Of a stretch of DNA of 64,000 bases, positions 9,288 through 59,193 are shown piece after piece. A program made the translations under genes and the position numbers. The DNA lies in assembly GCA_023139105.1 (NCBI GenBank), contig JAGLOF010000089.1, positions 1,807 through 65,806 on the forward strand. The letters run 5' to 3'. Every line of letters starts with the position of its first letter. Within the stretch, counting starts at the first letter, position 1. Origin of the DNA: a bacterium (GTDB taxonomy: Bacteria > Zhuqueibacterota > QNDG01 > JAGLOF01). The notes beneath the pieces were generated by a model. It searched no databases and was not told where the DNA came from. It saw only the letters and a program-made list of their open reading frames with translations.

Positions 9288-9631
9288 GAATTGACCCCTT
9301 TTTTCCAAATACAATCAGCCTCATTAATACCGGATCTACATACACCTGGAAAACCTGCACGTTTTGCTGTATCAAAGAATTCATCAGGTATTTTAATTTT
9401 GATATTCAATGGTTCTTCATTCTCTGTTCTCCTGTGGTTTACAGAACAGAGCAGCTGCAATCCTGCAAGATCTATATGCTCAGCTTTAGATAAGTCCAGA
9501 ATAACTTTCTTTTGATCACCTATTATCTTTTTCATAACATCATGAAAATCGGTTGCATTCTCAATAGTTAAATCCCCTTGAACCACATATATAGATTGTC
9601 TGTTTTTATTATCCACATCACATGAAAACAT
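9284..9631 (-). CDS. STAS-domain (anti-sigma-factor-antagonist-like) protein, apparently without the phosphorylatable serine
   Basis: SpoIIAA-like pattern VVQGDLTIENATDFHDVM...VILDLSKAEHIDLAGLQLL. The position of the usual DSSG phospho-serine reads DLAG. Confidence 0.75.
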   Translation of the reverse strand: MFSCDVDNKNRQSIYVVQGDLTIENATDFHDVMKKIIGDQKKVILDLSKAEHIDLAGLQLLCSVNHRRTENEEPLNIKIKIPDEFFDTAKRAGFPGVCRSGINEADCIWKKGVNS

Positions 9632-9645
9632 GACACCTCCTATAT

Positions 9646-11448
9646 CTAAAACAGTTCAATGTTATCGTCCAGACTGTCATCTCCTTCAGCTACTACAGCA
9701 TCCGTTTCAACAGTTTTCCTTTTTCCCTCACTGCCACTTACCAATAAACGTTCATGATTATCTCTTTCCCCTTGCATTGTATACATAGAAGTGATATTTT
9801 CTATATTTTTCTTATTCAACAAGACATCACCATCATCATATTCCGAATCGTTAATACTGATTTTGTCAAATATTTCAATAACCGGGCCCAGAACCTGTGC
9901 ATATGCATGATGCATATTGACATTAATCACAATATCATCTATCAGACTCTGTAGAGATCCTGATTGATCTTCAAGAACTTTTAATTCACCTTGTCCTGAT
10001 TCAAGAATTGATTTCAGGCTTGTGGCTTTTAAATTTAAATCATCAATAATTTCCTGAATTATATCAACTATACTTACATTAGTTTCCTGCTGTGAATCAT
10101 CAACATTGAGTATTAAACTCATTTCCTTCATTTCACCAATATGTATATCAAGTTCATGCATATCCTTATTGGCTCTATGAGACAACTTCACTACTTCCTG
10201 AACTAAAACGCCCAAAGCAGCACCGTCACTGCCAAGATGCGCCGCTTTTATTATACCGTTCTTGGCTAGTAAATCAATTTCATCATCTATATTGGCGATT
10301 TCAGAAATTGCTAGTTGAACAGCATGAAGTTCACCTGCAACAGGGCTTAACATATTACTGAGCTCTTTATGATTTTCATTTAGAGTTAGAAAGGAATCTA
10401 CAACCAATTGAATATTGGATTGAATTACTTCTATATAGGAATCACTTTTGTCTGATGTATAACTTGCAAAACTGGCAACAGCCAAATACATCTTATTTGC
10501 TTGAATAGCAACTTCTGATAAATTTTGTAAAAGTGTTTCTGTAGCATCTGTTATATTTTTCATTGCAGTATTTAATTGAATTGCCTGCAACTTGAGTAGA
10601 TGCGCATTGCCTTTGCTTATTGCTTGTCCACCATTAACAGAATCACATGTTTCATTCTGCTCTGATTTACATATCTCAAGACTAATGCCCTGCAATACTT
10701 CCACTACATGCTCAATTTGCTGCCGCGTTATATCATGAAACTGTATTGCAGTCACAATACCTGAAACTTCAGAAGATATTGATTGGGAGTGGAGTGAAAT
10801 ATCAGATGCTGAATGTGAACAACTCTCTTGCAGCTGTGAAACCATACTAAGGCAACCCTGTAGACCTTCAATAACACTCTGAGACTGTTGAAATTCCTTC
10901 TCCCTGGTACTTCCCAAGAGCAAAAAACATTCATCAATAATACTAATAAGACCCTTTATTTTTTTCAGGACTTCCGTTACTCTGGACTGAGAAGCCTCTG
11001 CCAGGTTATCAATTTCTATTGACAAAGTCTCAAGGAGCTGCCCCCTGTCACCCAGACGGGCCGTTTCAATACGGATGGAAATTGCATACCTTTTAAGATC
11101 CTTGACATGCTTTTTAAATCTTAATATATAAGGATTTATCATTGCAATGGTTTGAGAAAGTTTCCGGAGATTTTCAATGGTTTTTAGAATTTGACGGTTA
11201 TTATAATCCAGATAACGATCTATCCTGCCAAGCAGATCCTGAAAATCTTCTATTGTGCTATTAATTGTGCCTTCTGTAAAAATCTGAATAAAGTCGGAAG
11301 CGGATGTTGATGTTCTGCGGCTAAAGGACTGTATAGTCTGAAGGTTATTCCCCATTCCTAAAACTTCAATCTCAGTAGTTAAAATGAGGTCAGAAAAATC
11401 TTTACATATTTCTTTAATATTAATGCTGGTACTTTGGGGAGATTTCAT
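9646..11448 (-). CDS. Cytoplasmic MCP-like chemoreceptor homologue (degenerate MCP signalling motifs, no TM segments)
   Basis: Two segments resemble the MCP hairpin-tip consensus (NAAIEAARAGE.GRGFAVVA.EVRKLA): YAISIRIETARLGDRGQLLETLSIEIDNLAEAS and IDLLAKNGIIKAAHLGSDGAALGVLVQEVVKLS. No hydrophobic TM helices. C-terminus ends ...DDNIELF. Confidence 0.6.
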   Translation of the reverse strand: MKSPQSTSINIKEICKDFSDLILTTEIEVLGMGNNLQTIQSFSRRTSTSASDFIQIFTEGTINSTIEDFQDLLGRIDRYLDYNNRQILKTIENLRKLSQTIAMINPYILRFKKHVKDLKRYAISIRIETARLGDRGQLLETLSIEIDNLAEASQSRVTEVLKKIKGLISIIDECFLLLGSTREKEFQQSQSVIEGLQGCLSMVSQLQESCSHSASDISLHSQSISSEVSGIVTAIQFHDITRQQIEHVVEVLQGISLEICKSEQNETCDSVNGGQAISKGNAHLLKLQAIQLNTAMKNITDATETLLQNLSEVAIQANKMYLAVASFASYTSDKSDSYIEVIQSNIQLVVDSFLTLNENHKELSNMLSPVAGELHAVQLAISEIANIDDEIDLLAKNGIIKAAHLGSDGAALGVLVQEVVKLSHRANKDMHELDIHIGEMKEMSLILNVDDSQQETNVSIVDIIQEIIDDLNLKATSLKSILESGQGELKVLEDQSGSLQSLIDDIVINVNMHHAYAQVLGPVIEIFDKISINDSEYDDGDVLLNKKNIENITSMYTMQGERDNHERLLVSGSEGKRKTVETDAVVAEGDDSLDDNIELF

Positions 11449-11937: not shown

Positions 11938-13212
11938 TTATATCTTCTTAAAAAGTTCTTCCAGCTCCTGCCGCAATCCGGCTGACAGGTCTTCTTTCAA
12001 AATTGAAACTATAGAATTCTCCAATTTTTTCAATGTCTTTACCCAATTTTTTTTATAGCCTTTATCCATTAAAGAGTCGTGCCATTTATATATATTTTTA
12101 TAAATTTTATATGATTTTTTAATTGTCTTATATGAGAGTTGTTCTTTGAGAATACTCTTGGCAATTTTATTCTCAGGATAGCTTTTCCCATATTTAGTCA
12201 GAGTCTCTAAAATGCAGATTGTTTTCAAAGGAGATAATTTTATCTCCTTCTCTGCCAATTCTAACATTTGCTTCATCCAAAGTTGTACTGCCTCAGATTC
12301 ATCAGGTATATTAAACTGTGATAAGTTCTGATCAATTAAAAGAGGCCTGTCAAGAGCATTTAATCCTATTTCAAACCAATGTGCATCAGGATAAGCATGA
12401 TCCATACCGGGAACTTCTACGTAAGCGGCCCATTTTTTACCTTCTTCTCTGTATGCTTCCCATACCTTTAATGTCTGAAGCTGATTAAAATCATGACTAC
12501 CGGTTAATAGTGTATAGTGATTTGCATGCCCTTTTATATATAACCCTTCGTTATAATAAGGTAAAAATCCGGTAATATAATGGCCTTCGGAATCCAATAG
12601 CAATTCATCTTTATAGTTACACCCAATAATATAGTAACCCCCTGAGAATAATTCAGGGTATACTATAGCTAATCTACTGGCAATTCTTCCACCACCTGAA
12701 AGTCCAGCTACATATATTCGGTGGAGGTCAATATTATATACATTTTTGATATTATGCAAGGCATCCAAAGAAAGTGCCATGCGTTCGGGAATCCCTCTTT
12801 CATTACCAATATTATTGCCGCCAATCCAAATAAATTTTTGTTTGTCAAGTACTGGCAGATATGCATCCGGAGGTCCGCCTCCTTTAAATGCCGAGATCCA
12901 GATAATTAACCCATACGGTTCAGAACCATGATATTCAGCAGGAACATACGCAGAAAAACTTTCATGTTTCAGATTATAAGGCCTGGGAATTATAAATACT
13001 TCATCTTCTGCCATTTTATCCCATCCATTTCTTTCAATCATGGATGCGGCATTACTCAATGGATGTCTGTCATCTGTATCATAAGTCAGTATCATCCTTC
13101 CGGTATTTATGCTATCACCGATACTATCAGGATGTGTATTGACACTATCAAATGCAGAGCTTGATTTAAAAAATATGATTAACATTACAAAATAAATATT
13201 CTTCATTTTCAT
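11938..13212 (-). CDS. Secreted alpha/beta-hydrolase, PHB-depolymerase-family esterase (GxSxG) with Lys-rich C-terminal extension
   Basis: Signal peptide MKMKNIYFVMLIIFFKSSSA. Nucleophile elbow YVAGLSGGGRIAS typical of the Esterase_PHB family. Confidence 0.75.
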   Translation of the reverse strand: MKMKNIYFVMLIIFFKSSSAFDSVNTHPDSIGDSINTGRMILTYDTDDRHPLSNAASMIERNGWDKMAEDEVFIIPRPYNLKHESFSAYVPAEYHGSEPYGLIIWISAFKGGGPPDAYLPVLDKQKFIWIGGNNIGNERGIPERMALSLDALHNIKNVYNIDLHRIYVAGLSGGGRIASRLAIVYPELFSGGYYIIGCNYKDELLLDSEGHYITGFLPYYNEGLYIKGHANHYTLLTGSHDFNQLQTLKVWEAYREEGKKWAAYVEVPGMDHAYPDAHWFEIGLNALDRPLLIDQNLSQFNIPDESEAVQLWMKQMLELAEKEIKLSPLKTICILETLTKYGKSYPENKIAKSILKEQLSYKTIKKSYKIYKNIYKWHDSLMDKGYKKNWVKTLKKLENSIVSILKEDLSAGLRQELEELFKKI

Positions 13213-13402
13213 CCGCCTCTGTATAATATGGAGTGTAATTCTTTAATTTGCATGCATATCTTTAACAATATTAATTTTCCTGAAAATGATATTAAAGGCT
13301 ATTATTACTCCGACGATAAAAATACCTTGCATAAATATTGAAATTTTACGGCGCAGCAGTGTCAATTCATTCTTGCAGGATTAATAATTCCACTGTATAA
13401 GT

Positions 13403-14278
13403 TTAAATTAAGCCTAGATTAGAAACTATTGCCACCAGAGTAAAAGTTACTCCGAGACTCATGGCAGGAGGATCAATATGTGTGTCACCGTGTATAAGAA
13501 AGAGACATGCAAATAGTTCACAGAGATAGGCAGCTAATACACCAACCACAACGCCCCACAACAAAGATCCCGAAGCCAGAACAGCCAATTCAGCAGATAG
13601 AATAATATGCAATGTAACAGGTATACGCGCTCCAAAATGAAAAAAGAAAAGTGTCATTGCCGAAATACCGAACAATAGTCCGGCAGCTTGTGGCATGCGC
13701 ATCACCACTCCACCGGCCAGTATAGACAGAGCAACAGCGGTGACAAGTACTTGAAGAGTATGTGATGGCCACGGCTGCCACTCTTCAGGCCGGGAGAGAC
13801 GCCAGCGAGATCCACCCTCCGGTACTTTGCCAAAGATGCCGGTCTTTCCAAAAAGGAGCCGGGCTGCAAAACCAATAAACACAATAGACAGACCTATGGT
13901 ATTTGTCCATTCGAGACCATCAAAAATTTTTATTTTTGATAAAATTAAATTAATAATGTATCCGGATAGACCAAAGAGGCCGCCAACAATGAGAATGGAT
14001 GGATTGTTTCCACCGTACAGTGATGCCAGCACATTGCGACCGGAACAGAGAAAACCACGTTTTGCAGCATATGCTGCAGCTCCAAGCCCACCGGCAAAAA
14101 CTACATGTGGCCCCAGAAAGGGCCCCCATGTGATAACTTGCTGATATGTCATGTCTCCGGTTGACATATAGATAACAGTTCCCACAAGGGCAGATAGTCC
14201 ACATAAGCCAAATCCATTAAGCCCACCCAGAGCGGCACCTAGAACGCCACCGGAAAAAGCAATGAGAAAATTCACCAT
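13403..14278 (-). CDS. Gly-rich polytopic membrane protein of unknown function
   Basis: About 8 hydrophobic helices. GC-richer than neighbouring genes. Lies directly downstream of the PKS on the same strand. Confidence 0.6.
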   Translation of the reverse strand: MVNFLIAFSGGVLGAALGGLNGFGLCGLSALVGTVIYMSTGDMTYQQVITWGPFLGPHVVFAGGLGAAAYAAKRGFLCSGRNVLASLYGGNNPSILIVGGLFGLSGYIINLILSKIKIFDGLEWTNTIGLSIVFIGFAARLLFGKTGIFGKVPEGGSRWRLSRPEEWQPWPSHTLQVLVTAVALSILAGGVVMRMPQAAGLLFGISAMTLFFFHFGARIPVTLHIILSAELAVLASGSLLWGVVVGVLAAYLCELFACLFLIHGDTHIDPPAMSLGVTFTLVAIVSNLGLI

Positions 14279-14315
14279 AATATAATCCTGTTTACTGATT
14301 GATGATCAATATCAC

Positions 14316-17300
14316 TTAATAACTGTTATCAACTACATCTGCTAATTCTTTCACTGTCGGATTGTCCATCACATCACGAATCGAAACATTTGCATCCACT
14401 ACTTTCTTGAGACGTGAGATTAGTGTTGTAGCCAGGAGAGAGTGACCACCCAGTTCATAGAAGTTGTCATTCTGGCCAATCTCATCAATACCGAAGAGCA
14501 TGCTCCAAATCTCCGCAATCACCTTCTCTGTATCGGTTTCAGGAATCTTGAAAGCGGATGTCAAAGATGGCCGCTGATACCTGGGGCGGGCAGCATTTTC
14601 TTCCAAAATTCTCTCTTTTTCCTTTAGGATTTCACGACGAATCCATAAATCTACACGAATATCAAGATCACGAGTTGAGACTATTATCTGCGGAGCCCCT
14701 CTCCAGGCAATGATACGGCGGAATGCCTCCACACCCTCATTGGACATGATACCGTCGCGGAGTTCTTTCTCCAACCAACTGTGCAGCTCATCAGGCATCT
14801 GAGTAGTAAGTCCCATACCGACTTCGCCCCACATGTCCCAATTCACGGAAATCACAGATCCTCTTCGGCGTGAATGCCATTGAGCTGCAAATGCATCCAG
14901 GAAACAATTAGCCGCGCAGTAATCTCCCAGGCCTATACCGCCCAATACTGATGCAATAGATGAACAGAGCAGAAAAAAGTCAAGATCTCTATCCCCTAAT
15001 ATCCGGTCGAGTATGAGCGTTCCCTTAACCTTGGGAGCAAAAATCTTCTCTGCACTTTCGGGACGTTTGAGTTGGAGTATGCCTTCACCGGTCAGACCGG
15101 CTGCATGAATTACACCGTCAATAGTGCCCCACTTTAGGTCCACATCAGTGATAACGCTTCTCATATCTTCTTCAGAGCACACATCTGCGGCAAAGATCAG
15201 CACCTCTGCACCCGCTTTCTCTATATTCCTGATGGCCCTGATCTTTTTCTTTATTGCCTTATCCGTTTTCCGGCTTCGTAAAAGCCAGGACCATTTTGAC
15301 CGTTCCGGCAGAGGCGAACGGCTGACCAGTGCAAGGCGTGCATGTGAATGTTCTGCAAGATATTCAGCCAGCACAAGTCCCAGGCCGCCCAGACCACCTG
15401 TTATAAGATAGATGCCTTTATCACGAATTGACCACGATTCAGAAGGCGTCTCAAGCTTCACTGGCTCAAAACGCTGTACCCAACGATAACCATTGCGCAG
15501 GGCTGTCATGGGTTCTTCATCACTATTTAAAATTTCTGAGATCAGGACTTCTGTAATACTCTTAAAATCAGTTAAAAGAGGTAAATCTATTGCACGGCAG
15601 AATACATTAGGATACTCTTGAGGGATTACTTTAATAGCACCAAGTACAGTGGCTTTTTCTGGACGTATTACTTCTCCTCCCAGCACATCGTGGAGTCCAT
15701 CCGATATTACTGTTAAAGAAATTTCATCAGTCATATTATTCTGACTCATCACCTGGGCCAGAAAGAGTAAACTGAAAAACCCCAGATACTGGGTATCATC
15801 CAAAGAATCGTCCAGATTGATCGGAGTGGGCATATCAACTGTCCAGCAGTGAATAATACGGACGAGATTCTTTTCCAATGCCATCAAGCGTTCAAACAAG
15901 CTGTCATAGTCGCAGCGGTGTCCAGGGTGTAGAGAGTAGCCATTATCCTTCTCCTCAAAGCCTTTGCCTGGATATATAGGGATCACATCCAGGCCCCGGG
16001 ATCTCAGTGTATCTATTAATAAATCGCAAGATCCATTGGAGGGAGCAAATACCAGACAGCTCCCTTTGATCTCAGTTTTCTCTGATTGAGATTGATTGAC
16101 GTAACGGCTCCATGTGGGAACCGAAAACCATCGATCCATATCCGGCTCTTTGTGAAGCTGCTCCCACCTGGAAGGCGGCCTTACCTGAAAGGGTTGTACC
16201 GGAAAACGCTGATAATCAAATGAATATGTGGGAAGAGAAATACGTTTTCTCTTCTCGTATTGGAAGAATATATTCCAATCAATATTGATACCGCTGGACC
16301 ACAGACTACCCAGTGTATTAAGTACAAATTCAAAAGATTTGTCTGACTCATTAGCTCCGGGCAGCGATGAAAGTACAGGTATTCCTGAAAACTGTTCTCG
16401 ATGCATGCGTGTCAACGAAGCAAGGGTACGACCTGGCCCTACCTCCAAAATTACTTGAGAATCAGTTTTCAATTTTTGGACAGCTTCTGAAAAACGCACA
16501 GGCATACGCACATTATCTACCCAATAACGGGCATTAGTGATCTCTTTTGCCGTCACCAATCTACCTTTAACCGTTGAAATAATTGGTATGGCAGGTGCTT
16601 TGAAGGAGATTTTCTTGATCTCCTTTTGAAATTCTTCCAAAATAGAATCCATCATTCTGGAGTGAAAAGCATGAGATGTATGAAGATATTTAGAGCTCAC
16701 ACCCTCCAATTCTAATTTTTCCTGAAATCCGGCTACAAAATCTTCCTGACCGGAAACAACAGTGAGTGAAGGAGCATTAATAGCTGCCAGGTCGAAGCTG
16801 GTATCCATTCGTGATATCAGTTCTTCTTCAGAAAGAGTTACAGCCAACATGACACCAGTAGGCAGAGACTGCATGAGCTTGCCTCGTTGTGCTACCAGCC
16901 GTACCGCCTCTTCCATAGAAAAAACACCGGCTACACAGGCAGCCACATATTCACCAATGCTATGCCCAAGTAGCACGGCGGGCTTAATTCCCCAATGCAT
17001 CCAGAGTTTGGCCATAGCATAGGAGACTATAAAAATTGCAGGCTGAGCAAAAGTTGTCAGTTTAAGCTTTATAGCGGCAGATTCATCATGTGGGTCAGCA
17101 TTCAACAGGTTACGAATATCTTCATGGATGAGCGGCGTAAGAATATTGGCACAACGGTCTACAATATCCCGGTAAACAGGCTCATGCTCATAAAGATCTT
17201 TACCCATACCCGGGTATTGTGCTCCTTGTCCTGGAAATAGAAAGGCCGTAGTTTTGAAAAGAGCTTGATCAGCACTCTTTCTCTTTCCCGGAGAAGCAAA

Positions 17301-18818
17301 ACTTAGGGTGCCATCTCCGGATGCAATTGCCCAGGTACGATGAGAAAAACTGCGGCGTCCCACAGCAAGAGTATATGCAACATCGGCCAGGTTGACAGAT
17401 TTTTTGCACACAGCCAGACTGAGATTCTTTTCCATCCTCTCAAGAGCTGATTCGCTACGTGCCGACACAGGTAGAAGCTGGGCGGGACGACATGATTTTT
17501 CAGCTGATGCTTGTGGCACTTCCTCAACGATCATATGAGCATTCGTGCCGCCGAAACCAAAGGCACTGACTCCCGCTCTGCGGGGAGATCCGTTCGCCTG
17601 CCAGGAAATTCTCTTCTTATTTATACTGAAGGGAATGTTCTTAAGATCAATTTCAGGATTTGGTTTCTTGAAATTGAGTGTAGGAGGAATCTCTTTCTCT
17701 TTGAGCATATTAACAATCTTGATGAGTGAGGCTACTCCAGCAGCAATATTCACATGGCCAATGTTGGTTTTAACCGATCCCAGAACACAACGATGACCAT
17801 TGACATTTTGAAAAACCCTGGCAAGTGCCTTGACTTCAATAGGATCACCTATGCGTGTTGCTGTACCATGCGCTTCTACATAATCAATGCTGTCTGCGGT
17901 AACCTGAGCCGCCCGGTGCGCTGCAACTATTACGGCCTGCTGCCCATCAATACTAGGCGCAGTAAAACCTGCTTTACGTCCTCCGTCATTATTTATTGCT
18001 GATCCCTTAATAATTGCCACGACAGGATCTCTGTCATCCAGGGCTTTCTGCAGGGGTTTAAGCAGCACAACTCCTGCACCATCTCCGAAAACAGTTCCAT
18101 CAGCAGCTGCATCAAAAGTACGGCATCGTCCGTCTTTGGAGACCATGAGCCCCTCCTGATAGAGATATCCGCTTTTGTTAGGCAGAGTAATTGAAACACC
18201 GCCTGCCAGGGCCATATCGCATTCACCCTGAAGCAGACTCTGACAGGCCAGATGCACGGCAACCAGCGACGTTGAGCAGGCAGAAAGCAAGGTAAAGCTC
18301 GGGCCTCTTAAATTTAATTTATATGCTATTCTGGTTGAGACATAATCGCGGTAATTAACCAGAAAAGTGTCTACTGTTTCAGATGGATTGCCATGCCTGT
18401 GTTCTAAATGACGCAGCCATGTTTGATTCTCATTAGCTCCAAAAAAAGTACCAATGAGTCCTTGATATTCAAATGGATTATATCCTCCATCTTCCAGTGA
18501 CTCCCATGCCACATGATGCAATAGACGGATCTGGGGGTCCATCTTCTCTGCCTCACGGGGTGGATATCCAAAAAAGTCGGCATCAAAAAGAACTATGTTT
18601 TCCACAATGCCCTTGGCTTTAACATAACGTTTATCTCGAATCAGCGTAGCCGGGATTCCCTCAGAAAGCAGTTCATCGTCAGTAAAACGTGAAATAGACT
18701 GAGTGCCATTACGTATATTCTTCCAAAATTCATCAATGGACCCTGCACCTGGGAAACGTCCTGCCATACCGATTATTGCAATCTCGCCCGGGTTCCTGCT
18801 AACATGTTCGTTGGTCAT
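14316..18818 (-). CDS. Single-module type I polyketide synthase: KS-AT-(psiKR)-KR-ACP
   Basis: KS active-site Cys in TLLSACSTSLVAVHLA plus HGTAT/NIGH His motifs. AT motif GHSIGEYVAACVAGV. KR Rossmann motif YLITGGLGGLGL. ACP motif LGGHSLLATTL. No DH, ER or TE domains. Confidence 0.92.
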   Translation of the reverse strand: MTNEHVSRNPGEIAIIGMAGRFPGAGSIDEFWKNIRNGTQSISRFTDDELLSEGIPATLIRDKRYVKAKGIVENIVLFDADFFGYPPREAEKMDPQIRLLHHVAWESLEDGGYNPFEYQGLIGTFFGANENQTWLRHLEHRHGNPSETVDTFLVNYRDYVSTRIAYKLNLRGPSFTLLSACSTSLVAVHLACQSLLQGECDMALAGGVSITLPNKSGYLYQEGLMVSKDGRCRTFDAAADGTVFGDGAGVVLLKPLQKALDDRDPVVAIIKGSAINNDGGRKAGFTAPSIDGQQAVIVAAHRAAQVTADSIDYVEAHGTATRIGDPIEVKALARVFQNVNGHRCVLGSVKTNIGHVNIAAGVASLIKIVNMLKEKEIPPTLNFKKPNPEIDLKNIPFSINKKRISWQANGSPRRAGVSAFGFGGTNAHMIVEEVPQASAEKSCRPAQLLPVSARSESALERMEKNLSLAVCKKSVNLADVAYTLAVGRRSFSHRTWAIASGDGTLSFASPGKRKSADQALFKTTAFLFPGQGAQYPGMGKDLYEHEPVYRDIVDRCANILTPLIHEDIRNLLNADPHDESAAIKLKLTTFAQPAIFIVSYAMAKLWMHWGIKPAVLLGHSIGEYVAACVAGVFSMEEAVRLVAQRGKLMQSLPTGVMLAVTLSEEELISRMDTSFDLAAINAPSLTVVSGQEDFVAGFQEKLELEGVSSKYLHTSHAFHSRMMDSILEEFQKEIKKISFKAPAIPIISTVKGRLVTAKEITNARYWVDNVRMPVRFSEAVQKLKTDSQVILEVGPGRTLASLTRMHREQFSGIPVLSSLPGANESDKSFEFVLNTLGSLWSSGINIDWNIFFQYEKRKRISLPTYSFDYQRFPVQPFQVRPPSRWEQLHKEPDMDRWFSVPTWSRYVNQSQSEKTEIKGSCLVFAPSNGSCDLLIDTLRSRGLDVIPIYPGKGFEEKDNGYSLHPGHRCDYDSLFERLMALEKNLVRIIHCWTVDMPTPINLDDSLDDTQYLGFFSLLFLAQVMSQNNMTDEISLTVISDGLHDVLGGEVIRPEKATVLGAIKVIPQEYPNVFCRAIDLPLLTDFKSITEVLISEILNSDEEPMTALRNGYRWVQRFEPVKLETPSESWSIRDKGIYLITGGLGGLGLVLAEYLAEHSHARLALVSRSPLPERSKWSWLLRSRKTDKAIKKKIRAIRNIEKAGAEVLIFAADVCSEEDMRSVITDVDLKWGTIDGVIHAAGLTGEGILQLKRPESAEKIFAPKVKGTLILDRILGDRDLDFFLLCSSIASVLGGIGLGDYCAANCFLDAFAAQWHSRRRGSVISVNWDMWGEVGMGLTTQMPDELHSWLEKELRDGIMSNEGVEAFRRIIAWRGAPQIIVSTRDLDIRVDLWIRREILKEKERILEENAARPRYQRPSLTSAFKIPETDTEKVIAEIWSMLFGIDEIGQNDNFYELGGHSLLATTLISRLKKVVDANVSIRDVMDNPTVKELADVVDNSY

Positions 18819-18849
18819 ATCATCCTTAAAGTAATTGATTTATAAAAAT

Positions 18850-19620
18850 TTACATTTTTTTTGTTAAACAACTGCCTATGAATGTTTCTGTATCTAAAAT
18901 GATCAGATTTGAGCTTTGCTCTCCCCCTCTGAAACACAGAGCCGTCTTATAGTTCGGATCGATAGGAAAACATTTAAAATGCACTGATGAATCTATCACG
19001 CCATGAGCCAAAAATTGTATTTCATCTTCACTATTATATATCACAGAAAAATCTTTCAGCGAGTCGCCAAGGCCTTTGCCAGTCATTTTTAAATAACTCT
19101 CTTTCAAAGTCCATAAAGTATAGAAGAATGAGATCTGTCTCTCTTCAGGCAGGGCAAAAAGCCGACTGATCTCCGCATCTGAAAAAAAACGCAGTGCAAT
19201 ATCAATGTCTACCGGATCAATACGCTCTATGTCCGTTCCTACAGCTACATCGGCCAGTGCGCAGACAATCCACATACCCGAGTGGGCAATATTAAAATGT
19301 ATATCCTGTGATGTCTCTACAAAAGGTTTTCCTTCTCTACCTGTTTTAAAACGGATTAATCTAGGTGATATATCAAGTTTTTGACTGATGAGGTAACGGG
19401 CGAGCAGATCACCCAGTAAAGACCTGTGTGCATCCCATGCATTACGATAGCTCAGTATTCTCTCCATTTTAGCTGTTTCACATACAGTCAGCAAACGGGA
19501 AAAAGCATCCTCTTTAAAGAGCGGCGGACAATATAAAGCATAAAGATCTATCATTAAAATCCATCTTAAATAGAACAACCCTCTTGTATTGGACGTTTTT
19601 AATACATAGAGGGTTGCCAA
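18850..19620 (-). CDS. Sfp-type 4'-phosphopantetheinyl transferase
   Basis: Motifs FNIAHSG, VGTDIERI and WTLKESYLKMTGKGL. The true start may be the internal Met MIDLYALY (about 19554). Confidence 0.85.
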   Translation of the reverse strand: MATLYVLKTSNTRGLFYLRWILMIDLYALYCPPLFKEDAFSRLLTVCETAKMERILSYRNAWDAHRSLLGDLLARYLISQKLDISPRLIRFKTGREGKPFVETSQDIHFNIAHSGMWIVCALADVAVGTDIERIDPVDIDIALRFFSDAEISRLFALPEERQISFFYTLWTLKESYLKMTGKGLGDSLKDFSVIYNSEDEIQFLAHGVIDSSVHFKCFPIDPNYKTALCFRGGEQSSNLIILDTETFIGSCLTKKM

Positions 19621-31528: not shown

Positions 31529-32662
31529 CTATTCAGGGATGACATCTTCAAGCAAGTGTGGATAGTGCAACTGTAGGAATAACCTTGTATCTTTTAAAAA
31601 TTTTTGATTAGCCTCTAACTGAAATTTTGGAAGTTCAGTACTACTCATAGACTCCAAGGTGACTTTCAGACATTGGCCCAATTGCTTTTGAGCATTTTCA
31701 ATATACGTGTTCTCAGAATATTGACGAATATATTCATGAAAAATTAAAAAACCCAGCCTGTGAGTTGGAGCATATTGCTTCCATTCATTAATCAACCTTG
31801 CAGACAACAACATATTTACATGACTATTTATCCTTAAAACCGGCCATCGTTCTTCTTGATTAACAAATTCAGAAATATATTCAAGAAGTTTTTCAAGATA
31901 CATATCTCTATCTATCAGGTCAACATTTGCTAATTTCTGTCTCATCTCACGAATATGTCTTACACATTCTTCAAGAACATGATAATCACTTATTAACCTA
32001 TAAACTATATCATAATTAATCCAAATCTCAACCGGTTTATCACCCTGCTTTGCAGGTTTAAACTGCATATTATAAGCAAATACGTGCGCCGCCTTATCAA
32101 GATCATCATTGCCGGAAGAGTGTACTAATTCCACAGAATTCACCTTCCCCAGTCGGCCAATTAACAAATTTACATTTGCGGTACCTTCCTGATGTTTATT
32201 TTTTAGATGATCAGGGTATTGAGGGGCATCCGAACTTAATAATTCAGGAGGAACAAGAGTTATTGGTTTAAAGGGCTCTGGTGTTTTTTCAATAGTTTTA
32301 ATATTTCGTTCCGGAGGTTCGGCTATTTTATAAAGTACAATTGCATCCGGAGGAAATGTTTTTGTAGCCAGATTAGTTCTAAGTAACAGGCGTCGCATAA
32401 CCTGCTGTAAAGGTTCTGCCGTGGCCGGCAACATCATCTCTATGTCATCGATCAACGAATCATCAAAAATAAAAAAAATCCCTGCCTGTTCCTCTACATC
32501 TTTGAGAATAGTTCTGAAGGGTAAGTTTTTACGAGGCAGTGTTATCAAGATATTCCAGTTAATCTGATCATCCTGAATATAAGATTCAGCCGAAATAATA
32601 GATGAGCAAAATAAGAAAAAAAGACCAACGATCAGCCATGCATTTTGGTTGGTTCGTTTCAT
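31529..32662 (-). CDS. Membrane-anchored periplasmic protein with STN (secretin/TonB N-terminal signalling) domain + TonB_C-like domain + unknown C-terminal domain
   Basis: N-terminal TM/signal segment. STN-like segment NWNILITLPRKNLPFRTILKDVEEQAGIFFIFDD...TFPPDAIVLY. TonB_C-like segment PQYPDHLKNKHQEGTANVNLLIGRLGKVNSVELVHSSGNDDLDKAAHVFAYNMQFKP. Confidence 0.65.
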   Translation of the reverse strand: MKRTNQNAWLIVGLFFLFCSSIISAESYIQDDQINWNILITLPRKNLPFRTILKDVEEQAGIFFIFDDSLIDDIEMMLPATAEPLQQVMRRLLLRTNLATKTFPPDAIVLYKIAEPPERNIKTIEKTPEPFKPITLVPPELLSSDAPQYPDHLKNKHQEGTANVNLLIGRLGKVNSVELVHSSGNDDLDKAAHVFAYNMQFKPAKQGDKPVEIWINYDIVYRLISDYHVLEECVRHIREMRQKLANVDLIDRDMYLEKLLEYISEFVNQEERWPVLRINSHVNMLLSARLINEWKQYAPTHRLGFLIFHEYIRQYSENTYIENAQKQLGQCLKVTLESMSSTELPKFQLEANQKFLKDTRLFLQLHYPHLLEDVIPE

Positions 32663-33663
32663 TGCGTAATTATATAAGTATCACCTTCCTTATGAAAATT
32701 CGCATCTAATGTCAAACAAATTGAAGAAAGTACAACCTCAATAGGTGCGTCATGAAAGGCACCGGTTATTGTAGATGTTTCAATTTTTTGTCCTTGCCAC
32801 TCAATCTTCACATCAAAATATCGTTCCAACTGCATTATAACATCAGCCACCGGTGTTCTTTCAAAATGGACACGTCCCTCCAGCCAGCCAGTAACAACAT
32901 CCATATCAATCAATTCAGGTAGAGAAGGTCTGGCGTTTAACAATACTTCACTCATCTGACCGTCACTCAGTATCACATCATCATTTTCATGTGCTGATTC
33001 TACGCGAACTCTTCCCTCTTCAACCATTACGCGTGTTTTATTCTGTCGTGATTGTACAATAAACCGTGTACCCAAAACAGTTGTTTTTGCATGCTCTGTA
33101 ATAACAATAAATGGACGTTCTTCACTTTTAATTTCGAAAAAGCCTTCTCCATTCAGATGAACTTCTCTGGTTTGCGCTGTAAAATTTTTTGGATAACGAA
33201 GTACACTTCCACTATTCAAGGTAACCAGGGAACCATCTGCAAGATTAATTTGGGTTCTTTGACGATTTTGTGTAACTACTGTTAAAAACTCGGTCTCTGT
33301 TGGTTTTTCAGTTAAACTAAACCATGTAATTAATGTGGTGGCGGCAACAACGGCGATTCCAAGAACCGGTCTAAAATGTACATTAATCCATTTGGAAAAA
33401 ATTTTACTAAATGACGTATCACTATGAACATCTTTATCGGAAAACCCCAAACGATGTTCGAGAATACACCATGAGTCTTCAGCTTTAGTTTCAGGAATAA
33501 AAGGTAGAGGTTCAGTGTCATGCCAAATGGTCTGCATCTCATCATATATATGTCTAAAATCTTCTGATGTACAGAGGAAGTGATCAAACCTACGGCGCTG
33601 CCGTAATGTAAGTTCTCCACCTAAAGCTCTTACACACCAATTTTCTATTTGTTCTACTTTCAC
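32659..33663 (-). CDS. FecR-family anti-sigma factor (cytoplasmic N-domain, one TM, periplasmic FecR domain)
   Basis: TM GIAVVAATTLITWF. FecR motif DGSLVTLNSGSVLRY...HLNGEGFFEI. Start overlaps the upstream gene by 4 bp. Confidence 0.85.
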   Translation of the reverse strand: MKVEQIENWCVRALGGELTLRQRRRFDHFLCTSEDFRHIYDEMQTIWHDTEPLPFIPETKAEDSWCILEHRLGFSDKDVHSDTSFSKIFSKWINVHFRPVLGIAVVAATTLITWFSLTEKPTETEFLTVVTQNRQRTQINLADGSLVTLNSGSVLRYPKNFTAQTREVHLNGEGFFEIKSEERPFIVITEHAKTTVLGTRFIVQSRQNKTRVMVEEGRVRVESAHENDDVILSDGQMSEVLLNARPSLPELIDMDVVTGWLEGRVHFERTPVADVIMQLERYFDVKIEWQGQKIETSTITGAFHDAPIEVVLSSICLTLDANFHKEGDTYIITQ

Positions 33664-33763
33664 TTACACTTTCTCCAAACTCTGGTTATTTCACCAAATC
33701 ATACGCATTATAGTCAAAAACCCCTATGTTTCTGTAAATAATTTAGACTATTCAGGGTTTGCT

Positions 33764-34303
33764 TTAATTTACAAATGAAGCAGCCAACTCTTTTCTTAAT
33801 AATTTAAATGCCTGGGTCATTCTACTTTCTACAGTTTTTATTGAAATCTGGCATATATCTGCTATTTCTTTATATTTCAAACCATCATATCTACTCATTT
33901 TAAAAACAAGACGCACATTTTCAGGAAGGTCATTTATTGCTTCTTTTAAAGTCATCCTATCATCCATTGTAGATTCTGGGGATGAATTGCTAAGTGTTAT
34001 ATATTCTCTGAATATTTTGTCAGAACCTCGCTTACGAAGGTGATCAATTACTAAATTATATGAGACACGATACAAATATGCTTTTATTGATTTTTTAGGA
34101 TCCAAGTCGTGTCTATGCTGCCATAATCTGGTAAATACTTCCTGTACAAAATCTTGTGTATCTTCTCCTGAGTAAAGTCTATGAGCAATATATCTGTATA
34201 TAGCATCAAAATAACGCAAATATAGTGCCTTAAAAGCTCTTTGACTCGATTTACGAATCTCTATGGTCAGCTGTCTATCTGACCATTCTGAGAAATCTTG
34301 CAT
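33764..34303 (-). CDS. ECF (sigma-70 family group 4) RNA polymerase sigma factor
   Basis: Region 2 (FKALYLRYFDAIYRYIAHRL...DTQDFVQEVFTRLW) and region 4 HTH (LKYKEIADICQISIKTVESRM). Confidence 0.9.
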   Translation of the reverse strand: MQDFSEWSDRQLTIEIRKSSQRAFKALYLRYFDAIYRYIAHRLYSGEDTQDFVQEVFTRLWQHRHDLDPKKSIKAYLYRVSYNLVIDHLRKRGSDKIFREYITLSNSSPESTMDDRMTLKEAINDLPENVRLVFKMSRYDGLKYKEIADICQISIKTVESRMTQAFKLLRKELAASFVN

Positions 34304-34387: not shown

Positions 34388-34451
34388 CCTAAAAAAATCC
34401 ACAACAACCGCAAGGAAATGTTTTTTTATCTTCCTTGCGAGCATTGTGGAT
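34388..34451 (-). terminator. Rho-independent terminator after the FtsX permease gene (minus strand): 21-nt imperfect stem + 13-nt loop + U7
   Basis: Arms at 34397-34417 and 34431-34451 (8+9 bp paired, 4-nt internal mismatch). The plus-strand A7 at 34390-34396 gives UUUUUUU on the minus transcript. Confidence 0.7.
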
Positions 34452-34510: not shown

Positions 34511-37141
34511 TTATTCATAATGAAGCGTCTCCACCGGCCTTTTGTTGGCCGCTTTCACAGCCACTTGGATAATTGACACTAATGCTACAGATAATGTAAT
34601 GAATCCGGCAAATAAAAATAAATGATATGGCATGGCAATTCTATACGCAAAGCCATTAAGCCAATTTTGCATTAAATAAAATGATATTGGCCAGGCAATT
34701 ATATTTGCAACAACTACCCATATTAAAATTTCTTTAGTCATTAATGTTAAAATCCTGGCTACTGATGCACCCATAACTTTTCTGATACCAATCTCTTTTG
34801 TGCGCATTTGTGTAGTAAGCATTACAAGGCCGAACAAACCAAGACAAGCCACAGACAGAGCCAGAATAGTAAAACTAATAATAAGCTGCCCCATCTTTAG
34901 TTCCGTACGATAAAGAATATCAAACTGATCATCAAAGAAAAGATAGTCCATGGGTTGTCCAGGAACAACATTGCTCCAATATTCTGAGATCCTGTCAATT
35001 GTACCGACGATTTGCTCTGGTTTCAAACGAATAGACATAAAATTTATATCAGCTGTATTCATTATTGTTGTGACCATTGGGAACATCTCTTCCTGAAGAG
35101 GGCGTAAATGATAGTCTTTGTAGACACCTATTGCAGTCAATGGCGTTTCCGGAGTGCCCGCAAATATCATCTTGCTTCCCAAGGGTTGATCCAAAGCTAA
35201 TAATTCCACAGCAGTCTCATTCAGAATTATCGCTGAAGAATCGGTTAATCTTTTTTGTGTAAATGAACGGCCATCTATTAAAGAAAGTCTGTAGGTATCA
35301 TAAAAATTATAATCAACATCCAGACGGATTACCGTATAATTATGAGGATCATCACTACCAAGTTTTTGCAATATCGTTGCTGAGAGCCCAAGCAGTGGTA
35401 GTCCGTTTGAATAAGTTGCATTGATAACACCATCATCTTTAAGAATTATATTTTTGAACACTTCAGCATGTGAACCTATAGCTGACGCATTTTGAATTAC
35501 CAGTACTTGTTCCTTATCAAATCCCAAAGATTTATTTCTTAAATATTTAATTTGCTGCTGGATTACCAGTGCTGAAATAAGAAGGGAAATTGATGCGGCA
35601 AATTGAAAAACAACTAATCCGTTTCTAAATTTACGCCCTTTCAAGCCTTTATGTAACTTCCCTTGCAAAACAACGATTGGCTGATAAGAAGCCATGACCA
35701 ACGCCGGATAACTGCCTGCTACAATTCCAATCAAGACAACGCCGATAAGTAATCCGGGAATAAAATACCATGTTGTAAGTATATTCAAAGGAATAGGCTG
35801 GCCGATAATATTCTCAAAATGAGGATGAGCCAGGGCAGTGAGCAAAATTGCCAGAATAAAAGCCAGTATACATTGAAGAATCGATTCCATTAAAAATTGT
35901 TTGATAAGCTGACTGCGATAGGAGCCCATTACCTTGCGAATACCAACTTCATTGGCTCGTTTCATAGACTGAGCCGTAGCAAGATTAATAAAATTGATTG
36001 ATGCAACAAGGAGAATAATTAAAGCAATGGCACTCAGTATATAGATGTTGCTCATACTGCCATTGATACCTAAGTCCTGGCCAAGGTCTGAACGTAAATG
36101 AATATCCAGTAGTGGTTGGATAAAGAAACCAAAACGGCTACCTGATTCTAAAAACTCATCATAGGACATACCCATTGCCAATTCAACTATTGCACCTACA
36201 TGTTCTCTCTCAAGATCCGGAATTTTTGCAGCAAAATCCTCTATATTTGCTTCTTTGTGCAACGTAAAATAAGTACAGAGATCATTTGCCAACCAGATAT
36301 TCCGTCTACTTATATTATGAGAAGTTATTGCCGCAAGAAAGTCAAATTGGAAGTGGTTGGTTTCAGGTAATTTTTCAGTGATTCCGGTAACTATGTACTC
36401 TGTCCCATCTTGAAGAGTCAAGATTTCACCCATTGCATCTTTTTCTCCAAAATACTTCTGTGCTGTTTCTGGTGTCAGTACAATTCCAGATGGTAATGTG
36501 AGTGCAGTTTCAGGATCTCCAACGGCCAGTGGAATAGTAAAAACATCAAAGACTGTGGAATCAGCATATAGGAATGCATCTTCTTTGTATTGAACATCAC
36601 CATATTTCACATAAACACCGTTCATAAATAATCTGACAACATGCTCAACTTCCGGAAAAGTATTCTTCAGTGTAAATGCCATTGGAGATGGAGTCCTGGC
36701 ATCTCTTATTGTTTCACCACTCAGACTGGCATCCAGAGCCATTCTGTATATACGTTCCGCTTTCTCATGATGACGGTCATAACGGAGTTCATTAGCAACA
36801 AACATAAAAATCAGGATGCAGCTTGCAAGCCCTACACCAAAACCAACGAGGTTTATCAGTGCAAAATTAGCATGCCTTTTAATATTGCGAATAGCTATTT
36901 TTATAGCACTTTGAATCATCATATACTGCCCCTTCATTTGCATTCCAACATATAGTGTCAACGATTTTATTGTATGAAGCCAATACCATTTTGAAGCTTT
37001 GAAATTGCCTTCTTCCTCAAGAATATCCATAAAAACCGCCTCCATATCTCCCTCAAGATCATATAGACATTGATATAGAAATAATTGACGGAGAATTCTT
37101 ATTGCCAGAGCAGGCGGTCTCTCTCTCTTAGAAACTCTCAT
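34511..37141 (-). CDS. FtsX-family ABC permease (two FtsX/MacB-like modules) with N-terminal 'permease prefix' domain
   Basis: N-terminal prefix (PPALAIRILRQLF...DLEGDMEAVFMDILEEEG...WYWLHTIKS) followed by FtsX-like TM bundles. Start 4 bp after the PadR stop. Confidence 0.85.
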   Translation of the reverse strand: MRVSKRERPPALAIRILRQLFLYQCLYDLEGDMEAVFMDILEEEGNFKASKWYWLHTIKSLTLYVGMQMKGQYMMIQSAIKIAIRNIKRHANFALINLVGFGVGLASCILIFMFVANELRYDRHHEKAERIYRMALDASLSGETIRDARTPSPMAFTLKNTFPEVEHVVRLFMNGVYVKYGDVQYKEDAFLYADSTVFDVFTIPLAVGDPETALTLPSGIVLTPETAQKYFGEKDAMGEILTLQDGTEYIVTGITEKLPETNHFQFDFLAAITSHNISRRNIWLANDLCTYFTLHKEANIEDFAAKIPDLEREHVGAIVELAMGMSYDEFLESGSRFGFFIQPLLDIHLRSDLGQDLGINGSMSNIYILSAIALIILLVASINFINLATAQSMKRANEVGIRKVMGSYRSQLIKQFLMESILQCILAFILAILLTALAHPHFENIIGQPIPLNILTTWYFIPGLLIGVVLIGIVAGSYPALVMASYQPIVVLQGKLHKGLKGRKFRNGLVVFQFAASISLLISALVIQQQIKYLRNKSLGFDKEQVLVIQNASAIGSHAEVFKNIILKDDGVINATYSNGLPLLGLSATILQKLGSDDPHNYTVIRLDVDYNFYDTYRLSLIDGRSFTQKRLTDSSAIILNETAVELLALDQPLGSKMIFAGTPETPLTAIGVYKDYHLRPLQEEMFPMVTTIMNTADINFMSIRLKPEQIVGTIDRISEYWSNVVPGQPMDYLFFDDQFDILYRTELKMGQLIISFTILALSVACLGLFGLVMLTTQMRTKEIGIRKVMGASVARILTLMTKEILIWVVVANIIAWPISFYLMQNWLNGFAYRIAMPYHLFLFAGFITLSVALVSIIQVAVKAANKRPVETLHYE

Positions 37142-37144
37142 ACT

Positions 37145-37471
37145 TTATAATTCTCTGTTAAAAATGCCTCTGGGAAGACCGGCCCATAATTTCTCCTTAA
37201 AATCCTGGGCTTGCTGTAACGCTGTTCTGCCTTCATCAGTTAACTTATAATATATTTTAGGCCTACCTCCACGTCCCGATTCAACAGAACCTTTTTTTGA
37301 AGAGGCGTAGCCTTTTCTGATTAGCTGATCCATATTATTATAAATTGTACCAAAAGCTACATCACGCCCCGTAATTTCATTAAAATGTTTACGTATTGCA
37401 TAACTTGTAGCTTCATCGGTGAGATGCCAAATGGCAAGCAACAGAATCTGCTCAGTCATTGTCAGCTTCAT
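37145..37471 (-). CDS. PadR-family transcriptional regulator
   Basis: Winged-HTH pattern LLLAIWHL...YAIRK...GTIYNNMDQLIRKGYA...GRPKIYYKLTDEG. Confidence 0.9.
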   Translation of the reverse strand: MKLTMTEQILLLAIWHLTDEATSYAIRKHFNEITGRDVAFGTIYNNMDQLIRKGYASSKKGSVESGRGGRPKIYYKLTDEGRTALQQAQDFKEKLWAGLPRGIFNREL

Positions 37472-52652: not shown

Positions 52653-53561
52653 TTACTCTGCAGTGACCGCAGCAAGTGCCAGAGAATTCAATTTTGTCTT
52701 TGCATCATCAGAACGTGAAAGTAAGATAATTGAGACACGTGCACCAATAATAAGTCCACCGATCTGGGCAGAAGCAAGATGCCACAGACCTTTGGCAAAA
52801 ATATTACCACTGGAGATATCGGGCATCAATAAAATATCGGGTGTCCCGGCAATTCTGCTGTCTATCCCCTTCTTTTCTGCTGCTTCGCGAGAAAAAGCCA
52901 CATCAATAGCCATGGGGCCTTCAACTTCACATGAACCGAGTTCACCGTGAAGAGCCATCTCCTCCAGTTGCCTTGCATCCTCTGTCTCCGGCATATCAGG
53001 AGTGATCTTTTCAATAGCTGCTAAAGCAGCAATCTTGGGCCGGGCCACATCAAGTTTATGCATTATCTGAACACCATTACGGATAATGTCAGCTTTCTGT
53101 TCCAGTGTAGGCCTTATTACCATTCCGCCATCGGTAATCATTACCAATTTATGGTAAACAGGTATCTCCAGTACGGCAGCATGAGATAGTAATCTTCCGG
53201 TACGTAGATTATAGTCCTTATTTAAAACCTGTTTCAACAAGGTTGGTGTGGGGATATTCCCTTTCATTAACGCATCTGCAGCACCATCGTGTACAAGACG
53301 AACGGCTCGTTGGGCAATTTCGGTCTCGTCAGTTACATTATGAATTTCAATGCCGCTTAAGTCCATATTCAGATCCTGTGCCGTAGATTCTATTTTTGCT
53401 GCATCACCAACAAGAACCGGTATGGCAATATTTTCTTTCATTGCACTTTTAAGTGCCTCCAGCACAGAGCGTCCTTCGGCACCTGCAACTGCAATTTTTC
53501 TTGACTCCTGTTGACTGGCATTATTGATAATTTGCAAATAACTTTTCACTATTTCCTCCAA
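52653..53561 (-). CDS. ptb: Phosphate butyryltransferase/phosphotransacylase (PTA_PTB family), copy 2
   Basis: PTA_PTB family motifs; 302 aa. Confidence 0.85.
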   Translation of the reverse strand: MEEIVKSYLQIINNASQQESRKIAVAGAEGRSVLEALKSAMKENIAIPVLVGDAAKIESTAQDLNMDLSGIEIHNVTDETEIAQRAVRLVHDGAADALMKGNIPTPTLLKQVLNKDYNLRTGRLLSHAAVLEIPVYHKLVMITDGGMVIRPTLEQKADIIRNGVQIMHKLDVARPKIAALAAIEKITPDMPETEDARQLEEMALHGELGSCEVEGPMAIDVAFSREAAEKKGIDSRIAGTPDILLMPDISSGNIFAKGLWHLASAQIGGLIIGARVSIILLSRSDDAKTKLNSLALAAVTAE

Positions 53562-53582
53562 ATAACAAAATATTGTCTTGTA

Positions 53583-53620
53583 TAAAAAAACCGCATCAAA
53601 ATATACAATCGATGCGGCTT
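53583..53620 (-). terminator. Rho-independent terminator between the two ptb paralogues (minus strand): CCGCATC/GATGCGG stem + U8
   Basis: 7-bp GC-rich stem (53591-53597 / 53611-53617) with a 13-nt loop. Plus-strand A7 (53584-53590) gives a U-tract on the minus transcript. Confidence 0.6.
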
Positions 53621-53643
53621 AAAAAAAAGGATTTTATCAGGAA

Positions 53644-54552
53644 TTAATGATTGATAGAGAGAGCTGCAGCCATAACAATAGAATAAAATTTAGCGTCTTC
53701 ATCATCAGAACGAGAGGTTAAGATGACAGGAACTGAAGTACCCATCACAACAGCAGCCGTTATGCCTCCTGCCAGTAATGAAACACTCTTGTAAAATGTA
53801 TTGGCTGCTTCAATATTCGGAAATACAACAATATCAGCATCGCCTCCCACAGGGCTGGTGACACCCTTTATCTCACATTTACGTGGAGATAAGGCTACAT
53901 CCAGTGCCAGCGGACCATCTACAATACCTCCGGTAATCTGTTTACGCAAATTCATACCGGTTAAAATAGCAGCATCCATCGATGATGGAATTTTTGAACT
54001 GATGGTCTCTGTTGCGGAGATAATAGCCGCCTTGGGATTCTCAATTCCCAGTGCATGTGCCACCTGGAATGTGTATCCAATCATCTTGGCTTTCTGGTCA
54101 AGATCCGGAAGTGGCAGAATTGCAGCATCCGTTGCAATTAATAGCTTGGGATAGCTTTCAATCTCACAGAGAGTTACATGAGAAAGCAAGCCGCCTTTAG
54201 GCAATAATCCGGCTTCTTTGTTTAAGATAGCACGCATATAATCAGGAGTCTTTACAAGACCCTTCATCACCATCTGCGCCTTGCCATCTTTCACAAGCAT
54301 AACCGCCTTGAGTGCGGCCTTCTTTGAATCCGGTTCATTGACAATATCAAATATAGAAACATCAATATTTGCATTTTTACAGACATCTTTTATCTTATCT
54401 TCATCACCAACTAATATCGCTTTTACTACACCCTGAGTCACTGCACGGGTGATTGCGGTAATAGTATCAGGATCTTGACCTGCTGCCACGGCTACAGTTT
54501 GAGTCTCAGACCCTTTAACCATTTCAACCAGATCAGATAACTTCTTTACCAT
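53644..54552 (-). CDS. ptb: Phosphate butyryltransferase/phosphotransacylase (PTA_PTB family), copy 1
   Basis: Paralogous to copy 2; 302 aa. Confidence 0.85.
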   Translation of the reverse strand: MVKKLSDLVEMVKGSETQTVAVAAGQDPDTITAITRAVTQGVVKAILVGDEDKIKDVCKNANIDVSIFDIVNEPDSKKAALKAVMLVKDGKAQMVMKGLVKTPDYMRAILNKEAGLLPKGGLLSHVTLCEIESYPKLLIATDAAILPLPDLDQKAKMIGYTFQVAHALGIENPKAAIISATETISSKIPSSMDAAILTGMNLRKQITGGIVDGPLALDVALSPRKCEIKGVTSPVGGDADIVVFPNIEAANTFYKSVSLLAGGITAAVVMGTSVPVILTSRSDDEDAKFYSIVMAAALSINH

Positions 54553-54582
54553 TGGTACTGCTCCTTGCTTATCTATATATAT

Positions 54583-55659: not shown

Positions 55660-55667
55660 TCCTCGAT

Positions 55668-59180: not shown

Positions 59181-59193
59181 ATATTCTCCATCA

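Follow-up and report, generated by a model that had tools for sequence, protein, structure and literature searches.

In cell-surface signaling as classically described, the defining component is a transporter that also acts as the sensor. The FecIRA, PupIRB, and FoxIRA systems of Proteobacteria are composed of an extracytoplasmic function (ECF) sigma factor, a single-pass anti-sigma factor of the FecR type, marked by a conserved GT motif and an STN-like C-terminal subdomain, and an adjacent gene for a partner with an N-terminal STN domain. ECF sigma/anti-sigma pairs of Bacteroidetes are associated with SusC-like transporters extended at the N-terminus by an STN, which precedes the CarboxypepD_reg, Plug, and barrel domains in one protein. 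In the FecIRA-type systems, the STN signaling domains bind and stabilize the C-terminal domain of FecR, PupR, or FoxR, shielding it from proteolysis (PMC7186176, PMC11637429). The action of TonB on the TonB box of the transducer then lifts this protection and leads to a cleavage cascade (PMC12036975). How the STN controls FecR, and what the pull of TonB adds, are questions still under study (PMC11637429, PMC12036975). A cassette with the same three elements lies at positions 31529-34303 of a 64-kb stretch of contig JAGLOF010000089.1 (assembly GCA_023139105.1), hereafter called the window. Its third gene encodes a 377-amino-acid (aa) protein in which an STN-fold domain is joined to a TonB C-terminal-type domain (TonB_C) and an all-helical domain.

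The region is filled by three genes, all on the minus strand:

33764-34303, minus strand: ECF sigma factor, 179 aa, FecI-like/Bacteroidetes-type (Sigma70_r2, r4_2, Sigma70_ECF, TIGR02985)
32659-33663, minus strand: FecR-type anti-sigma factor, 334 aa (PF04773, PF16344)
31529-32662, minus strand: STN–TonB_C–helical protein, 377 aa, MCK5147669.1 (open reading frame (ORF), homologues, AlphaFold model)

The FecR gene and the 377-aa ORF have 4 bp in common (32659-32662). These coordinates, including the overlap, agree with a preliminary description of the sequence, which had proposed a sigma/anti-sigma pathway fed by an STN protein with no barrel. That proposal is supported by the domain order and by the recurrence of the cassette in 14/14 related loci. 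Because it recurs amid differing neighbors, the natural reading is a sigma/anti-sigma pathway whose input comes from an STN protein lacking a barrel. We consider, with about even confidence, that the cassette is a barrel-less variant of FecI/FecR-type trans-envelope signaling that works through a secreted STN–TonB_C adaptor.

The sigma factor and FecR are canonical. The sigma factor scores 133.1 bits against TIGR02985, the model for Bacteroidetes-type ECF factors (cut-off 126.4), and has ~50% identity to the sigma factor of every related cassette. FecR matches both PF04773 (E 5e-18) and the FecR_C family PF16344 (E 3e-14). It is composed of an N-terminal anti-sigma region, a single hydrophobic helix (residues 99-118), a FecR domain (128-220), and an STN-like FecR_C domain (265-332). 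A VLGT[RKE]F motif, G198/T199 in the window protein, is kept in 14/14 aligned cassette FecRs. Judged from this motif, and not from an alignment to E. coli FecR, G198/T199 would be the counterpart of the E. coli FecR self-cleavage site G181/T182 (PMC12036975).

The 377-aa protein is divided as follows:

32585-32662, minus strand: predicted Sec signal peptide, residues 1-26, MKRTNQN-AWLIVGLFFLFC-SSIISA/ES (the slash marks the cleavage site), read from the sequence
32324-32557, minus strand: STN-fold domain, residues 36-113, two beta-alpha-beta units (profile and Foldseek matches)
32249-32323, minus strand: Pro-containing flexible linker, residues 114-138 (lowest confidence of the model)
31994-32248, minus strand: canonical TonB C-terminal-type domain, residues 139-223 (PF03544, Foldseek)
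31532-31993, minus strand: all-helical domain of no known family, residues 224-377, 154 aa (AlphaFold model)

The assignment of the central domain to TonB_C, made in the preliminary description, is borne out by PF03544 at residues 146-223 (E 2.1e-14) and by TIGR01352. The domain is also matched directly by phmmer to solved TonB C-terminal domains, and its PQYP, EG, SSG, LD, and PA motifs are present. It is internal, with 154 residues after it. An AlphaFold model built with the family alignment reached a predicted local distance difference test (pLDDT) score of 87.8; the single-sequence model, with a pLDDT of 37, was set aside. In the model, residues 2-31 form a helix and residues 39-112 a two-fold beta-alpha-beta domain; after a linker of low confidence come the TonB_C fold (136-221) and eight helices (225-374). 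TonB C-terminal domains were the top Foldseek matches of the model to the PDB, and the C-terminal domain of TonB bound to FoxA (6i97_D) gave a template modeling (TM) score of 0.84 and a root-mean-square deviation of 1.7 Å.

The N-terminal domain is modeled as two beta-alpha-beta units, the fold of transducer signaling domains and of secretin N0. Foldseek matched this part to 6ovm_B, 9cuv, 2o5p, 1zzv, and 4jtm with probability 1.0 and a TM score of ~0.7; these matches include the signaling domains of PupB, FpvA, and FecA as well as secretin N0. When compared to solved structures, the profile of the domain matched PilQ (1e-5), the PupA signaling domain (1e-4), the FecR_C of a Bacteroidetes anti-sigma factor (4m0h; 3e-3), and HasR (0.07). 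Among the 20 aligned full-length homologues, the STN family PF07660 (SMART SM00965) matches 13 (E<=0.1; best E 1.2e-9) and FecR_C matches 10. A split-type relative, encoded at locus L010, reaches 35.1 bits against PF07660, for which the gathering score is 28.4.

The C-terminal domain was described beforehand as about 150 aa of no recognized family. This holds: its 154 residues are all-helical and without a relative in Pfam or the PDB, and matches to FlbT, BamD/YfiO, CpoB, and FKBP52-TPR, the best of them TPR-like, were at chance level and were rejected. The domain has conserved positions, including N279, W294, and a PLxFLVFHDF-like motif (LGFLIFHEY in the window protein). In the fused protein, TonB_C is the most conserved part, with a mean pairwise identity of 40%, followed by the STN (30%), the helical domain (24%), and the linker (12%). 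No plug or barrel is found in the 377-aa protein, as had been noted. A Pfam scan of every ORF of at least 150 aa in the window likewise found no Plug, TonB-dependent barrel, or second TonB_C.

The N-terminus has a K/R-containing n-region, a short h-region, and the sequence IISA/ES with an AxA-like site, and has no His. The N-termini of the family are poorly conserved (19% identity), have short apolar runs, mostly end in A/Q, and also have no His; a TonB-type SxxxH helix is not seen in the homologues. In sequence, the N-terminus resembles a cleavable Sec signal peptide, with the cleavage site placed by eye. Given this N-terminus, we take the 377-aa protein to be, most likely, a soluble periplasmic protein that is not anchored as TonB is. 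The membrane anchor of the preliminary description is thus unlikely.

Gene context was counted in 14 distinct loci with enough upstream sequence, composed of 11 loci of the fused type and three of a split type. In every one, the sigma and FecR genes stand immediately before the STN/TonB_C gene, and the other neighbors vary. The FecR and adaptor genes of the relatives mostly overlap or are separated by gaps of ~10-15 bp, and the spacing is up to ~120 bp in two. The cassette consists of the three genes alone in the window and in its closest relative, L003. Two of the split-type loci, L010 and L016, are arranged as sigma–FecR–[TonB_C–helical lipoprotein]–[STN–TonB_C], and the same pair of proteins is found in L018, where the locus ends before the upstream genes. 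The pair is located at L010:2226-3762, L016:7159-8672, and L018:166-1691, and its two TonB_C domains may pair with each other. In L026, sigma and FecR are followed by an STN–TonB_C protein and a lipoprotein of ~208 aa. The source gene finder missed the sigma gene of this locus (L026:150-730) and placed a 100-aa ORF on the other strand; translated, the plus strand reads as a normal ECF sigma factor.

The ~208-aa lipoprotein has an LxGC lipobox and no Pfam family. It follows the fused protein in eight loci and is present in nine loci in all (L005:4398-5033, L006:6854-7477, L007:6347-6973, L013:9140-9793, L014:3814-4440, L015:6456-7079, L020:8180-8797, L023:837-1487, and L026:2545-3216). In L024 and L008, of a subclade that includes Candidatus Zhuqueibacterota, the fused protein is followed by several GWxTD proteins, and in L008 also by the transporter without an STN that is described below (L008:9361-12204 and 13246-17143; L024:2424-3833 and 8073-10478). 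The STN–TonB_C pair is kept in every variant, and the helical domain and the lipoproteins are present in some variants and absent from others. Therefore, the invariant core of the cassette is sigma, FecR, and STN–TonB_C.

The family to which the 377-aa protein belongs was revealed by an exhaustive HMMER search. Word-indexed searches performed poorly: the single protein retrieved nothing, and the family alignment retrieved only four proteins. Of the locus searches made with family alignments, one gave no genome match and another gave three genome loci and seven metagenome loci. Full-length homologues are 21-41% identical to the window protein, and 20 align end to end. All members are from uncultured bacteria. 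One homologue is from Candidatus Zhuqueibacterota (KSB1, of the Fibrobacteres–Chlorobi–Bacteroidetes (FCB) group), and the rest are from metagenomes or metagenome-assembled genomes. An identical gene is present in the GenBank metagenome-assembled genome GCA_030635125.1, where its product, MCK5147669.1, is named "energy transducer TonB." A census with local hidden Markov models on the 150 best cluster representatives distinguished these architectures:

STN–TonB_C–helical, as in the window: 20 clusters
STN–TonB_C, about 220 aa: 24 clusters
TonB_C–helical, about 280 aa: 19 clusters, with a lipobox in at least 10
Tandem TonB_C repeats, unrelated to the cassette: 86 clusters

The name "energy transducer TonB" is probably a systematic mis-annotation that affects at least 63 protein clusters at 50% identity. 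The tandem TonB_C proteins contain two to seven domains; P0004 is 1080 aa in length with seven copies, and P0003, P0005, P0009, P0016, and P0022 are other examples.

In the proposed mechanism, the 377-aa protein would be exported to the periplasm as a soluble adaptor. There, its STN would dock on the periplasmic FecR and FecR_C domains of the co-translated FecR and protect the anti-sigma factor. By strand addition, the central TonB_C would capture a short segment of an envelope partner, a beta-strand resembling a TonB box, and the variable helical domain would add a further contact or specificity. Upon a change in the state of the partner, the adaptor would be pulled or titrated off FecR, after which regulated proteolysis would degrade FecR and release the ECF sigma factor. 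Binding of the STN to FecR is proposed by analogy to FecA/FecR, PupB/PupR, and FoxA/FoxR. Strand capture by TonB_C and the direction of the switch are what we infer; the TonB_C model superposes on TonB bound to the TonB box of a transporter (6i97_D). In the relatives, the candidate partners are a co-encoded lipoprotein (most relatives) or a TonB-dependent transporter without an STN (L008 only). With such partners in the relatives, replacement of the TonB-dependent receptor, as put forward in the preliminary description, is a possibility only.

Several results weigh against the adaptor reading. The STN family PF07660 does not match the window protein itself, even at E<=10, so that the STN assignment of the preliminary description does not stand on a direct Pfam match and is instead supported by the homologue, profile, and model matches. 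The profile of the N-terminal domain scores secretin N0 slightly above the transducer signaling domains, and therefore the partner of the STN need not be FecR. Co-transcription with sigma and FecR would be equally expected of a mere regulated product. Lastly, a sigma-dependent promoter motif could not be derived, and no partner gene is present in the cassette or elsewhere in the window. The preliminary description had suggested a search for an ECF promoter motif nearby; GAAC-N15-17-CGT has 12 matches in the window, against 8.2±2.5 expected, and none of them is upstream of the cassette. A two-block motif enumeration in 14 sigma-upstream regions did not rise above shuffles.

One specific version of the adaptor reading names the partner. 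The 377-aa protein would be a signaling domain detached from its transporter and acting in trans, whose TonB_C binds the TonB box of a ligand-loaded transporter without an STN, and the adaptor would let one sigma/FecR pair read transporter occupancy. This is a tentative proposal and rather unlikely. It is consistent with the canonical TonB_C, modeled in the shape that binds TonB boxes, and with L008, the Candidatus Zhuqueibacterota locus, in which a 947-aa TonB-dependent transporter with CarboxypepD_reg, Plug, and barrel domains but no STN lies immediately 3' of the cassette. The NCBIfam model of the MxcH receptor, NF038079, also matches the TonB_C at model positions 1-89 of 792, that is, at its N-terminal end; therefore, TonB_C domains do occur as receptor extensions. 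However, a transporter is nearby in only one of ~14 lineages and none is found in the window, the extra genes that recur are those of lipoproteins, and genuine TonB would compete for the same box. In a broader form, the TonB_C of a free adaptor would bind the TonB boxes of transporters that lack a signaling domain, or an equivalent strand of an outer-membrane lipoprotein, and would thereby strip the STN from FecR. We regard this form, too, as possible but doubtful. If true, it would uncouple signaling from any single transporter and signaling could run without TonB energy.

Alternatively, the adaptor could serve as an envelope tether that connects the inner-membrane protein FecR with a partner held by a lipid anchor, either the ~208-aa or the TonB_C–helical lipoprotein. 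By analogy to lipoprotein-based stress sensors, such a system would report the state of the lipoprotein, a bound ligand such as Ca2+, or envelope integrity. The conserved LxGC lipoprotein 3' of the cassette in nine distinct loci argues for this proposal, as do the split variants, in which TonB_C and the helical domain are themselves carried on a lipoprotein. The ~208-aa lipoprotein also contains two EF-hand-like loops (DKDQDGxxD and ADGxLN), but the EF-hand matches are below threshold and insignificant (E 0.01-0.1). Moreover, the lipoprotein is absent from the cassettes of L003, L008, and L024, and tblastn found none in the whole window. This explanation is likewise held with low confidence.

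It is improbable that the 377-aa protein is an output of the pathway instead of its input. It would then be a periplasmic member of the sigma regulon, such as a scaffold or structural protein, with STN and TonB_C folds by coincidence. ECF operons often contain their own targets, and the match of the STN-like profile to secretin N0 would fit such a product. Against this, the gene is always directly after FecR, the STN is strictly kept in all variants, and STN and FecR_C are known cognate partners (PMC7186176).

A genuine TonB-type energy transducer, perhaps dedicated to signaling like HasB, is very improbable. The NCBI name, the canonical TonB_C, and the Pro-containing linker would suit this explanation. 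However, the N-terminus is signal-peptide-like, poorly conserved, and without an SxxxH-type anchor, the TonB_C is followed by 154 residues, and the split relatives are lipoproteins or short secreted proteins. No ExbB/ExbD was found by the Pfam scan, in which ExbD-sized ORFs of <150 aa were not included, or among the called genes of the related loci. The idea of the preliminary description that a TonB paralogue reports its own engagement is not supported, on the same grounds of anchor, ExbB/ExbD, and domain position.

An N-terminal STN after a signal peptide does resemble the start of a TonB-dependent transducer, of which the protein could be a fragment left by truncation or mis-assembly. This explanation has next to no probability. 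It is refuted by at least 20 full-length homologue clusters that have the same architecture and end alike and by the identical gene in independent assemblies; the convergent TolC-like gene, and no TonB-dependent transporter, 3' of the gene also speaks against it.

The cassette is bounded on its upstream side by a PadR regulator and an 876-aa MacB/FtsX permease, identified by the Pfam scan (34511-37471). Between the MacB-type permease gene and the sigma gene is the following element:

34397-34451, minus strand: hairpin and T-run, an inverted repeat with 21-nt arms

Its fold energy is -30.3 kcal/mol (z -8.3). The hairpin is likely a terminator that gives the sigma, FecR, and 377-aa genes their own transcription unit. 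It was missed by a simple terminator scan because its loop is 13 nt. On the other side, 3' of the 377-aa gene, a 444 bp spacer is followed by the convergent TolC-like gene, which is the last of a TetR–HlyD–AcrB–OEP efflux operon. A scan of the window for sigma-70 promoters and terminators was uninformative, Rfam found no RNA family across the window, and the repeats in the flanking spacers are trivial only.

Efflux genes also occur at other loci. An HlyD–HlyD–MacB–OEP operon lies directly upstream of sigma on the same strand at L013:161-6211 and L020:3-5072, with a gap of 36 bp in L020, and an orthologous resistance-nodulation-division (RND)/OEP operon is nearby in both the window and L003. 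This proximity may reflect synteny within the lineage and not a link in function. An association of the cassette with MacB/HlyD/OEP pumps was not adopted; the operon is upstream in L013 and L020 only, and in the window the terminator-like hairpin separates the genes.

Elsewhere in the window, a chemotaxis cluster (4819-11448) encodes a CheA-like kinase, an MCP-signal protein, and a hybrid response-regulator/PAS/HisKA_2 kinase, and the neighboring 424-aa ORF (11938-13212) has no family. A 1500-aa single-module type I polyketide synthase (ketosynthase–acyltransferase–ketoreductase–acyl carrier protein) is encoded beside a phosphopantetheinyl transferase at 14316-19620. Two tandem pairs of phosphate acyltransferase (PTA_PTB) and acetate/butyrate-kinase-like genes (52653-56732) adjoin genes for subunits of a 2-oxoacid:ferredoxin oxidoreductase (56814-63329).

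Should the adaptor reading hold, the cassette suggests that a free periplasmic adaptor can feed the cell-surface signaling switch. It would offer a minimal, barrel-free model in which to study the control of FecR by the STN and whether TonB-box capture alone can signal. It would also help gauge how far FecR-type switches have spread beyond nutrient receptors. No description of an STN–TonB_C protein was found in the literature, in a search that was incomplete and gives absence of evidence only. The paper re-classifying ECF sigma factors describes FecR-clade groups with and without TonB-dependent receptors and does not mention an STN–TonB_C partner.

Set beside the known systems, the 377-aa protein shares with TonB, HasB, and FusB the canonical TonB_C fold and motifs, and TonB C-terminal domains are its top structural matches. 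Unlike these proteins, it has no TonB-type anchor and no ExbBD neighborhood, and its TonB_C is internal. In place of the long Pro-rich spacer of TonB there is a folded STN and a 25-residue linker. Because anchor, spacer, and ExbBD are lacking, the database name "energy transducer TonB" is misleading, and the protein cannot transduce energy as TonB does. The MxcH-type receptors (NF038079) are similar in that TonB_C is used as an accessory periplasmic module and not as the end of an energy transducer. MxcH, however, is a full barrel receptor, whereas the 377-aa protein is barrel-less with an added STN.

The SusC-linked systems of Bacteroidetes resemble the cassette in their TIGR02985 sigma factor, their anti-sigma factor with FecR and FecR_C, and their FCB-group hosts. 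They differ in that the L008 transporter begins at CarboxypepD_reg, and the STN is on a separate adaptor. Compared with FecIRA, PupIRB, and FoxIRA, the STN here is without TonB box, plug, or barrel and belongs to a secreted protein, with no transporter in the cassette. It is also followed by TonB_C, the very element that normally binds the transducer. The sigma factor and FecR of a cell-surface signaling system are thus present, and the transducer composed of STN, TonB box, plug, and 22-strand barrel is not. Because there is no barrel transducer, the cassette should not be filed as a FecIRA system, though it probably works alike on the FecR side. It is a real, conserved, and apparently undescribed variant of FecR-type signaling from uncultured FCB-group bacteria.

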